Shown: piece by piece, positions 42,283 to 44,458 of the stretch
Layout: each line of letters starts with the position of its first letter
Position numbering within the stretch: position 1 is the stretch's first letter
Virus record (IMG/VR): IMGVR_UViG_2534681834_000006
Strand: one strand, 5' to 3'
Source of the DNA: a virus
Lineage: Duplodnaviria; Heunggongvirae; Uroviricota; Caudoviricetes
DNA length: 64,000 bases
Notes under the pieces: model-generated
Database searches by the model: none
What the model was told of the DNA's origin: nothing
The model's input: the letters and a program-made list of their open reading frames with translations, nothing else
Made by a program: the position numbers and the translations under genes

Positions 42283-42528
42283 TTGGCAGAGCGTGTTGAT
42301 GATGCAGAGCTGAGCATGAATCAGTTAGAAGCTCTCAAAGACATGGCCATCGATAACATCAGAAAGCAGGCACAGGTCGTGAGTCAGGTATTTACAGGGA
42401 AGTGTCGTTACTGCAATGAACCGATTGAATCAGGCATCTATTGTGACGCTGAGTGTGCGCAATGGCACAGGGAAGAGCAGGCCGCAAAACAGCGTAAATA
42501 TGGCATGCGACCGGCAGGATTTGACTGA
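42283..42528 (+). CDS. TraR/DksA-type C4 zinc-finger protein
   Basis: 81 aa; CRYCNEPIE...YCDAEC. Confidence 0.55.
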   Translation: MAERVDDAELSMNQLEALKDMAIDNIRKQAQVVSQVFTGKCRYCNEPIESGIYCDAECAQWHREEQAAKQRKYGMRPAGFD

Positions 42529-42775
42529 TTGTGTTGCGCTTTACTGAGGAAGAGTTTCAGGCTTTTAGTGAGCGTCGAAATAAGGGGCGGTCCAGGCCAA
42601 AAACCAAAAGGATCCATTCTTATCGCTTGCGCCGGTAAAAGAAGTTTCTCCACATGCGAAGGCACTTGCAGCACTGGCAAAGAACCCTGACCTGCGCGAC
42701 GGAAATTGCGAGCACTTCGAGCAGGTTTTCATTTTTGATTACTTCGAACGCAAGCACCCTGACATCTATGAGCTG

Positions 42776-43108
42776 TTGCATGCAACGCCTAACGGAGGGA
42801 AACGTTCAAAAGCAACCGCCGGGAAAATGAAGGCTGAAGGGCAGAAAAAAGGTTATCCGGACATGAGTCTCGATAAAGCATGCGGTATTTATCACGGCAT
42901 GCGAATTGAGCTTAAAGAACCAAATGGTAAAGCCCCGACGAAAGAGCAGATCGCCTGGATGCGCAGGCTTAGAGAGGAAGGTTACTACGTCGTTCTTGCG
43001 TATGGTGCAGAACAAGCGATAACCGCCATCCTGGAATACATAAGCCTTAAGAAGGGTGAGGCTATTGAGCATGTATTGAACGGCGACAAGTGGTTGTATG
43101 CTGCTTAA
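42776..43108 (+). CDS. VRR-NUC domain nuclease (PD-(D/E)xK)
   Basis: 110 aa; PDMS...IELK motif arrangement typical of VRR-NUC. Confidence 0.55.
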   Translation: MHATPNGGKRSKATAGKMKAEGQKKGYPDMSLDKACGIYHGMRIELKEPNGKAPTKEQIAWMRRLREEGYYVVLAYGAEQAITAILEYISLKKGEAIEHVLNGDKWLYAA

Positions 43109-43271
43109 AATAATAAATTAATTAGTGCACATGTGCTCTTTGATATAGCGCACATTAACATCGGGAGAATAATAGTGTCATTCAAGGTTAATTATGAATC
43201 GCTGGCATCGATCATGCCGCGTAATGAACAGGAAGCAGATGCTGAAGTGGACCCGGTAATCGCTGAAATGA

Positions 43272-43934
43272 ATGCTCGCCTGGAGGCTGAATTTGCAGCT
43301 GAGAATGAACATACCACCCAGGGCGACTAGGACTGTTTTTTGTGTCGGTAGCGGTCCGTCACTCACTCGTGAGGACTGTGCTGCTATAGAAAAAACTGGC
43401 TGTTCAATCATTGCGGTTAACAATTCCTGGCTGATGTTCGATGACATTTATGCCTTATACGCCGGTGATTTGTCATGGTGGAAGCAATACGGTTCCACCA
43501 TACCGGGAGGGAGGTTCCGCAAAGTGACAGCCAACCTGGCGGCGGCGAAATCATTTTCGTTGGAGTACAGGCGATATTGTAGACCGGCGGAAGGGGTAAA
43601 TAGCGGCGCGCAGGCTATCAGTCTGGCTGCTGAATCAGGGGCTGAAGTAGTGGTATTAGTCGGCTATGACTGTTCTCTGCAAAACGGCCTTCATTGGCAT
43701 GGCGCGCACCCTCAAGCCCTACGGAATCCAACGCAGGTGTCTATTTCAAAATGGCAACAGCAGTTCCTGGATACCCGCAAAAAACACGCAGATTTACATA
43801 TTTTGAATGCAAGTAGGAGCAGTGCAATTCAATGTTTCCCAAGAATAAATTTAGAGGCAGTGATCGCGTTATTATCGTCGGCAGTGGCCCAAGCGCCGCA
43901 AACTTTGTTGCGCCGCGCGGAGTGCCGATTATAG
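43272..43934 (+). CDS. Rossmann-like protein, paralog A (MptE/DUF115-like, tentative)
   Basis: VGSGPS...IIAVNN...VVLVGYDCS motifs; start uncertain. Confidence 0.45.
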   Translation: MLAWRLNLQLRMNIPPRATRTVFCVGSGPSLTREDCAAIEKTGCSIIAVNNSWLMFDDIYALYAGDLSWWKQYGSTIPGGRFRKVTANLAAAKSFSLEYRRYCRPAEGVNSGAQAISLAAESGAEVVVLVGYDCSLQNGLHWHGAHPQALRNPTQVSISKWQQQFLDTRKKHADLHILNASRSSAIQCFPRINLEAVIALLSSAVAQAPQTLLRRAECRL

Positions 43935-44458
43935 CGGTCAATGGGGCTATCGACTGGCTTAACCGCGCTTCTTATTTTTTCACACTTGATCCATCGCCAG
44001 ACAATATGCGGCGCGTTGGTCGTGGCCGCCGTCGCCGTGGTGTTTGTTATTGCATGGCACTACCCGATGTTAAAGAACGTGAAGTCAGAGACGGCATTCT
44101 GTGCTTCCGTCGTGTGGCTGAACGCGGCACAGAGCCAAAAAATACGAATTCTCCCGAGTGGTGGGCGTGGCGCTGGTCCGCACATTTCGGCCTTTGCGAA
44201 GATGAGAATGAAATTGCCAGCGGCAATAGTGCATATGGTGCTCTGAACCTGGCTTTCCATATCGGATTCAAACATGTAGCCCTGGTGGGCGTTGACGCTA
44301 CGCAAGAACTACGCGTTCACTCCGGCGGCACGCCAAAAAATCTAAGTCACCTGCCTTTGTTATTCCAGTCTGCGCGTGAACAGATTGACGTTGTTTCATG
44401 CGGGAAAATGGGAGGTATTCCGCAGATGACTCTTAAAGAATGGCTGAAGAATACATGA
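43832..44458 (+). CDS. Rossmann-like protein, paralog B
   Basis: VGSGPS...IIAVNG...VALVGVD motifs; start overlaps 3' end of paralog A by about 100 nt. Confidence 0.45.

Follow-up and report, generated by a model that had tools for sequence, protein, structure and literature searches.

The adjacent genes pmgO and pmgP of phage P1 encode distant paralogues which, together with the nearby gene pmgQ, form one conserved enzyme module, and we consider it reasonably probable that the three genes serve as an accessory glycosylation cassette in the lytic phase. They were studied in a 64,000-nt stretch of DNA from a tailed virus (IMG/VR record IMGVR_UViG_2534681834_000006; this whole stretch is hereafter called the window), of which positions 42200-45900 were 98.3% identical to the P1 reference genome AF234172, 97.8-98.8% identical to P7, RCS47, SJ46 and other P1-like phages, and matched by approximately 800 P1-like plasmid records. 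This is P1's pmgL-pmgM-pmgN-pmgO-pmgP-ppp(-pmgQ) operon, and the gene names are those given in AF234172. P1 is among the most used phages in bacterial genetics, and about half of its genes are without a defined role (PMC9024508). The pmg genes were catalogued in 2004 under "putative morphogenetic function", a label that has no experimental backing. The genes themselves were thus already on record in P1, without characterisation; the novelty lies in recognising PmgP-PmgQ(-PmgO) as a conserved, putative glycosyltransferase module, natural fusions included.

Paralogy and conservation of PmgO and PmgP

The genes of the module lie in the window as follows.

43272..43934, forward strand: pmgO, 220-residue protein of the MptE-like/Maf/GT42 fold, optional second paralogue of the module
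43832..44458, forward strand: pmgP, 208-residue protein of the MptE-like/Maf/GT42 fold, core component of the module
45129..45830, forward strand: pmgQ, predicted 233-residue GT8-like (GT-A, DxD) glycosyltransferase, conserved partner of pmgP; PHROG 1962 'glycosyltransferase', E 5e-128

The original prediction, which had been made from the letters of the window, placed five open reading frames (ORFs) at 42283-42528, 42776-43108, 43272-43934, 43832-44458 and 44440-45132, and all of them were found there. Its inventory had missed pmgN (43175-43330), and pmgQ lies just outside the span that it covered (42283-44458).

Pairwise alignment of PmgO with PmgP by BLASTP was weak (E 0.002) and confined to the N-terminus. 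When the profile of 31 PmgO relatives was compared with that of 38 PmgP relatives by hhalign, the two families matched with a probability of 98% over 167 columns (E 2.3e-13), at about 23% identity. Judging from these profiles, PmgO and PmgP are true, old and distant paralogues, which bears out the paralogy first proposed from the shared motifs VGSGPS, IIAVN and VxLVGxD; these motifs turned out to be conserved family columns on both sides. In the PmgO family the invariant columns are G28, P29, S30, N50, G131 and D133, accompanied by a conserved His (H141), and the conserved core spans approximately residues 20-202, the first ~17 and last ~18 residues being non-conserved and modelled with low confidence. 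In the PmgP family N37, G153 and D155 are invariant, the G19/P20/S21 loop is at least 90% conserved, and H173 is the conserved His.

A scan of IMG/VR with the PmgP alignment returned 80 loci, all P1-like at 98-100% identity, which were used for allele and ORF-integrity counts only. All 80 P1-like contigs carried intact ORFs of 220 and 208 residues. Among the sites that vary between the window, P1 and P7, 15 of 19 in the part belonging to pmgO alone and 19 of 22 in the part belonging to pmgP alone fell at third codon positions. This bias, together with the intact ORFs, suggests that both genes are under purifying selection.

Several database records of these proteins are incomplete or misnamed. 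Many P1-like plasmids (e.g., NZ_CP097097.1, locus 1332-1834) have no pmgO entry in their gene tables, and short versions of PmgO in the protein databases (161-174 residues) are without the GSGPS loop. Misleading names include 'norphogenetic protein', a propagated typing error, 'alpha-2,3-sialyltransferase' for PmgO and 'phosphohydrolase' for PmgQ homologues; the present analysis corrects such labels for the PmgO and PmgQ homologues.

The module in other genomes

The module recurs in several hundred protein clusters of proteobacterial phages and prophages, PmgP relatives amounting to 583 cluster representatives at 50% identity and 327 clusters at 90% identity. Gene neighbourhoods were examined in 12 lineages. 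PmgP and PmgQ homologues were adjacent in four phages (JK004, phiNP, EP_H11 and XacN1) and in prophages of Pseudomonas, Ochrobactrum, Alloalcanivorax and Serratia, and a PmgO homologue joined them in eight of these lineages. Every locus examined outside P1 thus had a PmgQ-type partner adjacent to the PmgP relative, often with added methyltransferases or extra glycosyltransferases. The arrangements (O, P and Q denoting homologues of PmgO, PmgP and PmgQ) were as follows.

P1-like Cronobacter phage JK004: O, P, Q; without ppp
Lambdoid Citrobacter phage phiNP: O, P, Q, flanked by Rz (lysis) and the genes for terminase
Escherichia phage EP_H11: O, P, a GT4-like protein, Q
Pseudomonas prophage (L006): O, P, Q plus another GT-A-like protein, immediately preceded by the gene for the major capsid protein
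Ochrobactrum prophage (L007): P, Q after the capsid gene, with one intervening gene that has a faint head-tail connector match
Alloalcanivorax prophage (L008): P, methyltransferase, Q, O, flanked by genes for lysis and for terminase
Contig of protein P0164 (L010): O-P fusion, Q, a GT-A-like gene, after lysis genes
Xanthomonas jumbo phage XacN1: O, P, methyltransferase-Q fusion (ORF373)
L015, L016 and L017: three further P-Q pairs

Natural fusions joined the same components in several combinations, namely O-P (P0164), P-Q (P0214 and P0285), Q-P (P0293), Q-P-methyltransferase (P0266) and methyltransferase-P (P0302). Based on the conserved linkage and these fusions, the unit consists of P and Q with O as a frequent third member and methyltransferases or extra glycosyltransferases as optional additions, which is the make-up of a glycan-building cassette.

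Two further proteins were observed beside the module. A fourth conserved protein of ~190 residues, with weak similarity to Pfam Nucleotid_trans (GT-A), is encoded 3' of the PmgQ homologue in two unrelated prophages (L006:7254-7835 and L010:9757-10335), which points to variants of the cassette that carry one more glycosyltransferase. In XacN1 the cassette is immediately followed by ORF372 (L013:6446-9712, reverse strand), a 1088-residue protein with two Thr/Pro-repeat (mucin-like) regions of ~300 residues in total, for which the PHROG matches were to families of unknown function only; it is a possible acceptor for O-glycosylation.

PmgQ as a predicted GT8-like glycosyltransferase

The profile of 31 PmgQ relatives matched, in the PDB, AgtA (6mw5, E 2.3e-8), glycogenin (E 2e-4) and pneumococcal GlyE (5gvv, E 2e-3). 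Columns invariant among the 31 sequences include D79-L-D81, corresponding to the DxD motif, G148-D149 and H208-G209-x-P211-x-P213, and the C-terminal H-G-x-P-R-P motif aligned with the H..G..KPW motif of GT8 enzymes. PmgQ also aligned with the E. coli enzymes WaaJ and WaaO over both motifs. A search of Pfam, including Glyco_transf_8, gave no family at E <= 0.1 for PmgQ itself. On the grounds of homology, the DxD motif and the C-terminal motif, PmgQ is predicted to be a GT8-like glycosyltransferase.

Fold class of PmgO and PmgP

Confident AlphaFold2 models of the two single-domain proteins were obtained, with predicted local distance difference test values of 94 for PmgP and 87 for PmgO. Both models have the Rossmann-like fold of Maf and MptE, in keeping with the original description of the paralogues as Rossmann-like, and the top structural neighbour of each was the Maf glycosyltransferase, which gave the longest alignments (160-164 residues). 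A match to Pfam MptE-like (PF01973, DUF115), below threshold as in PmgO and PmgP themselves, was reproduced in all 28 PmgO relatives (best E 5e-8) and all 35 PmgP relatives (best E 9e-7), and the O-P fusion P0164 passed the cut-off of this family with 44.6 bits. The same Pfam family covers Maf proteins and also matches E. coli WaaZ (E 7e-7), the Kdo III transferase according to NCBIfam, Kdo being 3-deoxy-D-manno-oct-2-ulosonic acid. Against PDB sequences, the PmgO profile aligned weakly (E 0.05) with the GNGPSL loop that binds cytidine monophosphate (CMP) in Cst-II and with its SG...LG..I.L.G.D segment; the PmgP profile gave no meaningful match, and the viral structure library BFVD yielded matches only to uncharacterised MptE-like phage proteins. 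PmgO and PmgP belong to the MptE-like/Maf/sialyltransferase-like (GT42-type) fold class and are not assignable to Maf, GT42, GT73 or MptE proper.

This fold is common to MptE and thiamine pyrophosphokinase, so PmgO and PmgP might instead be kinases transferring pyrophosphate to a sugar, cofactor, nucleotide or other small molecule, the product of which would feed PmgQ or another pathway. We regard this as unlikely. The closest structural neighbour of both models is a glycosyltransferase, Pfam MptE-like itself includes Maf and matches WaaZ, and the partners of PmgO and PmgP are glycosyltransferases and methyltransferases, covalent fusions included. Moreover, no pterin, folate or thiamine genes were found nearby, pterin/folate biosynthesis genes being absent beside the cassette in the neighbourhoods of all 12 lineages.

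Membership of PmgO and PmgP in the WaaZ family (CAZy GT73) was tried as a closer assignment and rejected, the NCBIfam and hhalign scores being far too weak. The WaaZ model TIGR04437 (equivalog cut-off 200 bits) scored PmgP at 11.9 bits (E 0.1) and P0164 at 20.3 bits (E 2.9e-4) and gave no match to PmgO; the cut-off of the second WaaZ model, NF007333, is 473 bits. A precomputed "faint" WaaZ annotation on the PmgO-PmgP fusion protein was reproduced only weakly. WaaZ was retained solely as a lead to the donor sugar.

Expression, dispensability and proposed function

Four regulatory sites annotated in P1 were located in the window by homology.

42176..42194, forward strand: late promoter LPpmgL, back-to-back with LP26 (mapped from AF234172; 1 base differs from P1)
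42209-42225: O26, operator of the C1 repressor, after LPpmgL (mapped from AF234172; identical to P1)
43115..43131, reverse strand: C1 repressor operator Oppp, formerly Op83 (mapped from the P1 annotation; 2 of 17 bases differ from P1)
43076-43102: PpmgN, predicted sigma-70 promoter, overlapped by Oppp according to the P1 annotation (1 base differs from P1)

The placement of Oppp at PpmgN implies that the genes from pmgN to pmgQ would be repressed in the prophage. In our model the P1 cassette would be transcribed in the lytic phase from LPpmgL and from the C1-repressed promoter upstream of pmgN, and would be silent in the prophage. PmgO and PmgP, as Maf/GT42-like enzymes, would use a host nucleotide-activated sugar, by analogy a CMP-activated ulosonic acid, and our guess is CMP-Kdo. 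To our knowledge, all glycosyltransferases of this fold use CMP-activated ulosonic acids; in addition, no genes for sugar-nucleotide synthesis were found next to the cassette in phages, and the named relatives all come from Gram-negative Proteobacteria or their phages. The guess rests on these three points, and CMP-Kdo would be the sole such donor universally available in P1 hosts. PmgQ would add a hexose from a uridine diphosphate (UDP)-sugar with retention of configuration, and the three enzymes would jointly assemble a short glycan, its acceptor being produced late during infection. It is in this sense that we infer an accessory, lytic-phase glycosylation cassette, with its glycosyltransferase activity, donor, acceptor and timing, as the probable function.

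The genetic data available for P1 fit such a role. pmgO, pmgP, ppp and pmgQ were all non-essential by CRISPR interference (CRISPRi) and by deletion (Piya et al., PMC10695390), and single-gene P1 knockouts of non-essential pmg/upf genes showed no plaquing defect and unchanged anti-restriction activity (PMC9024508). Neither the text nor the tables of the paper on the P1 virion proteome mention PmgO, PmgP or PmgQ (PMC9024508). Dispensability and absence from the virion proteome are what would be expected of accessory enzymes. Insertions of the insertion sequences IS1 or IS26 were also observed within the pmgM-pmgP stretch of several P1-like elements (phi456, NZ_CP073955 and NZ_AP028849), which fits a region that the plasmid-prophage does not need for its maintenance.

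The same data bear on the older annotation, by which PmgO and PmgP would be structural or assembly proteins of the virion. The late-promoter control, the position among tail and head genes and the P7 annotation 'head morphogenesis' speak for it. Against it stand the lack of any plaquing defect on deletion or CRISPRi knock-down, the silence of the virion-proteome paper, tables included, on both proteins (PMC9024508), and their enzymatic fold. The morphogenetic label is largely refuted, and a structural role appears hardly tenable.

Several observations weigh against the glycosylation cassette. The Pfam MptE-like scores of PmgO (23.2 bits) and PmgP (20.9 bits) lie below the gathering score of 34.6 and so lend weak sequence support, and the similarity to E. 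coli WaaZ is weak (hhalign probabilities of 14% for the PmgP family and 21% for the PmgO family). The literature searched held no functional study of pmgO or pmgP and no biochemical or genetic evidence of glycosylation by them in P1. P1 virions have been analysed by sodium dodecyl sulfate-polyacrylamide gel electrophoresis and liquid chromatography-tandem mass spectrometry, and glycoproteins go unmentioned in that work (PMC9024508). Finally, a late or structural context is not universal: the P-Q pair at L016:7001-8298 lies in a 531-kb bacterial contig from a metagenome (ENA ERZ27285137), between SDR and TetR-family genes and with no phage genes within 7 kb, so that the module may also occur outside prophages, and two cassettes (XacN1 and L017) lie near nucleotide-metabolism genes.

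Candidate acceptors

As to the acceptor of the proposed glycosylation, we tentatively place a virion protein or other phage protein ahead of the lipopolysaccharide (LPS) core and DNA, as one possibility among others. The reasons, all of them circumstantial, are the expression timing, the adjacency to capsid genes, the nearest solved relatives (Maf, AgtA, glycogenin and GlyE), which are directed at proteins, and the Thr/Pro-repeat protein of XacN1. The fullest version of this idea, which we offer as an improbable but specific proposal, is that P1 and many temperate and jumbo phages of Proteobacteria decorate their own virion proteins with a short Kdo-type glycan built from host CMP-Kdo and UDP-hexose by PmgO/PmgP and PmgQ. 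If true, it would be the first virion protein-glycosylation system in Gram-negative phages and would involve the use of protein-linked Kdo.

The LPS core, the region of the P1 receptor, would be the acceptor if the cassette remodelled the host envelope through a WaaZ-like Kdo transferase and a WaaJ/WaaO-like GT8 enzyme, thereby blocking superinfection or the sticking of progeny to debris. E. coli LPS-core enzymes do fall in the same superfamilies, as seen in the match of WaaZ to Pfam MptE-like, in the match of the PmgP domain of P0164 to TIGR04437, and in the DxD and H..G..KPW motifs, over which PmgQ aligned with both WaaJ and WaaO; the restriction of named relatives to Gram-negative Proteobacteria and their phages and the P-Q pair in a chromosomal setting without phage genes (L016) would suit such a role as well. 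The WaaZ similarity is, however, limited to the N-terminal nucleotide loop and, at 11.9 and 20.3 bits, falls far short of the required 200, and the best solved relatives of PmgQ act on proteins or protein-linked glycans. In P1 the operon is preceded by a C1 operator and a late promoter, and several prophages embed the cassette between capsid and head-completion genes. With such late expression little new LPS could reach the surface, so that the timing would be wrong; receptor-converting genes of the classical kind are active in the prophage. Taken together, these points make LPS remodelling rather unlikely.

The original prediction had seen in the nuclease, the duplicated enzyme and the phosphatase a cassette reminiscent of nucleic-acid modification or anti-defence, and a DNA acceptor would give that idea its sharpest form, with the cassette glycosylating phage DNA bases to escape restriction, perhaps with help from the nuclease and phosphatase. 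In phage clusters that place hexoses, heptoses and a Kdo-like acid on 5-hydroxymethylcytosine (5hmC), GT-A enzymes occur that are relatives of the GT8 transferases of LPS synthesis (bioRxiv 10.1101/2023.12.21.572611), and two of the cassettes lie near ribonucleotide reductase genes. On the other hand, no linked cytosine methyltransferase, TET-type or hydroxymethylase partner was found in any locus examined. P1 DNA has long served as a standard substrate for restriction enzymes. Linkage of the nuclease and phosphatase to the paralogues is confined to P1-type phages, the pmg/upf knockouts showed no anti-restriction change (PMC9024508), and a search with the PADLOC defence-system models returned no match. 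DNA modification is therefore very unlikely, and the proposed three-part cassette is not supported. The protein-directed reading of the PmgO/PmgP/PmgQ cassette remains the one that we favour among the acceptors.

The pmgO/pmgP overlap

43832..43934, forward strand: overlap of pmgO and pmgP, 103 nt; pmgP lies in the -1 frame of pmgO

The second gene had been described as starting about 100 nt before the end of the first in another frame, which is accurate. The overlap encodes the N-terminus of PmgP, including the conserved IIVGSGPS nucleotide-binding loop, and in the other frame the last helix of PmgO with its non-conserved tail. It was 103 nt long in 80/80 P1-like contigs, and one variable site was found in these 103 nt between the window, P1 and P7, versus 19 in 501 nt and 22 in 505 nt of the flanks. 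Because all 80 contigs keep both ORFs and the overlap, and variation in both genes concentrates at third positions, the overlap is no assembly artefact, and the two ORFs do not collapse into one.

In P1, JK004, phiNP and EP_H11 the pmgP ATG is embedded in conserved x-Cys-Phe codons of pmgO (A|ATG|Y), and the shared position in four divergent lineages therefore indicates that the start of the overlap is ancestral. The length of the overlap among these four phages (37-103 nt) is set only by where the pmgO frame reaches a stop; the PmgO tails vary once past the conserved L-E-x-x-L helix, that of P1 being modelled with low confidence. Elsewhere the two genes share 4 or 11 nt, overlap in the +1 frame or are separated.

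Such an arrangement raised the question of a programmed -1 frameshift within 43832-43934, which would make a PmgO-PmgP fusion like P0164. pmgP is indeed in the -1 frame, two formal X_XXY_YYZ heptamers occur in the overlap (T_TTC_CCA at 43835-43841 and A_AAT_TTA at 43847-43853), and the natural in-frame O-P fusion exists. Yet neither heptamer is present at the equivalent place in JK004, phiNP or EP_H11, though these share the overlap start, and chance alone would give an estimated 0.13 heptamers or so in 34 codons. A shift at either heptamer would also remove the conserved C-terminal L-E-x-x-L helix of PmgO, which the natural fusion keeps. Furthermore, pmgP has its own ATG with AGGAG 12 nt upstream, inside pmgO, its relatives are overwhelmingly free-standing proteins of ~200 residues, and the overlap is short (4-11 nt), in the +1 frame or absent in other lineages. 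These findings make recoding highly improbable, and the overlap is an inherited compact arrangement, probably with translational coupling, and not a recoding site.

Genes flanking the module

The remaining genes of the region are the following.

42283..42528, forward strand: pmgL, DksA/TraR-type C4 zinc-ribbon protein, 81 residues (PHROG 54 'DksA-like zinc-finger protein', E 1.7e-13; P1 annotation)
42531..43108, forward strand: pmgM, predicted VRR-NUC (PD-(D/E)xK) nuclease gene, 192 codons in P1, frameshifted in the window (alignment to P1/P7; three-frame translation)
43175..43330, forward strand: pmgN, small acidic protein, 51 residues from GTG 43175 (65 residues from GTG 43133) (P1/P7 annotations)
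44440..45132, forward strand: ppp, lambda-type Ser/Thr protein phosphatase (Pfam Metallophos, E 9e-16, 59.3 bits versus a cut-off of 21.5; PHROG 246 NinI-like, E 5e-113)

The matches listed for pmgL and ppp agree with the TraR/DksA-type zinc finger and the Ser/Thr phosphatase recognised in the original prediction. Its small VRR-NUC nuclease is probably a nuclease, though not a small one: the 110-residue ORF at 42776-43108, which carries the VRR-NUC core, constitutes the C-terminal 110 codons of the 192-codon pmgM broken by a 1-nt deletion. PmgM matched PHROG 2363 (E 1e-71) and scored 21-22.3 bits against Pfam VRR_NUC, below the cut-off of 23.8, with the P-D and E-L-K residues present. The run of A residues at ~42601-42604 is A4 in the window versus A5 in P1 and P7, and the frame is lost after codon 26. 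The nearest plasmid is annotated with a full 579-nt pmgM, and since A5 was found in all 66 P1-like contigs holding the site, as in P1 and P7, the A4 allele is either a private mutation (making pmgM a pseudogene) or a homopolymer read error.

pmgN sits between pmgM and pmgO, overlaps the start of pmgO by 59 nt at its 3' end, and has a GGGAGA Shine-Dalgarno sequence upstream of GTG 43175; its sole homologue in the loci examined was in the P1-like phage JK004. pmgN was scored essential by CRISPRi, with an efficiency of plating of 1.4e-2 (Piya et al. 2023, PMC10695390), and non-essential in the deletion study, a discrepancy that may reflect a polar or off-target effect.

No gene for a phosphatase separates the PmgP and PmgQ homologues in JK004, phiNP, EP_H11, XacN1 or the prophage loci, ppp being an insertion in P1-type phages only (JK004, itself P1-like, is without it). 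Likewise, no homologue of PmgL, PmgM or Ppp was found in the neighbourhoods of PmgO/PmgP relatives outside P1-like phages among the loci examined, and the PADLOC models gave 0 matches at E <= 0.01 to the seven proteins of the region. The zinc-ribbon protein, the VRR-NUC nuclease and the phosphatase are P1-only neighbours and stand outside the module.

Upstream of the operon on the reverse strand, P1 gene 25 (window 40532-41749) was observed to encode the 405-residue 'tail stability' protein gp25 with a SWIM-like zinc-finger motif (CDCGRHQYW...CKHVLH).

Implications

Three labels of "putative morphogenetic" function are hereby replaced with a concrete glycosylation hypothesis. If the acceptor is a virion protein, virion glycosylation would extend from actinobacteriophages to Gram-negative phages, with a bearing on stability, immune recognition and therapy; if it is LPS or DNA, the cassette would represent a new route of receptor masking or anti-restriction.

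Comparison with known systems

The 5hmC DNA-glycosylation clusters resemble the cassette in that they comprise several glycosyltransferases, draw on host LPS-type sugars including a Kdo-like acid, and contain some GT-A enzymes related to GT8. They differ by carrying the enzymes for the 5hmC precursor, namely a cytosine methyltransferase and TET-like (5mYOX) proteins, none of which was linked to the cassette in the loci examined.

Maf of Magnetospirillum magneticum (PDB 5mu5_A) is a multi-domain protein of 632 residues, to which PmgO and PmgP align over ~160 residues with 16% identity; both are bare domains of ~200 residues and thus lack the Maf architecture. The flanking domains of Maf are thought to bind flagellin, its target, and P1 is without a flagellin target. 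We know of no CMP-pseudaminic or CMP-legionaminic acid made by E. coli K-12.

For the GT42 enzymes Cst-I and Cst-II of Campylobacter jejuni (PDB 2p56 and 1ro7), the sequence match is only at the E 0.05 noted above. The usual hosts of P1 are without CMP-sialic acid, and 'sialyltransferase' is therefore a fold label and not a function. WaaZ (283 residues) belongs to the same Pfam superfamily as PmgO and PmgP, though membership of its family is not supported; it uses CMP-Kdo, a donor present in every host of P1-like phages.

PmgQ shares the DxD and C-terminal motifs with GT8 enzymes such as AgtA of the Skp1 glycan, glycogenin, GlyE and WaaJ/WaaO, and at ~230 residues it is shorter than the GT8 enzymes of LPS synthesis.

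Virion-glycosylation genes are known from mycobacteriophages, and no glycosylated protein has been reported for P1. The mycobacteriophages infect actinobacterial hosts, whereas the phages carrying PmgO, PmgP and PmgQ infect Gram-negative ones. In the genes for mycobacteriophage virion glycosylation, accessory glycosyltransferase genes lie beside capsid genes (PMC11256854), and the PmgO, PmgP and PmgQ homologues of the Pseudomonas and Ochrobactrum prophages occupy the same placement.

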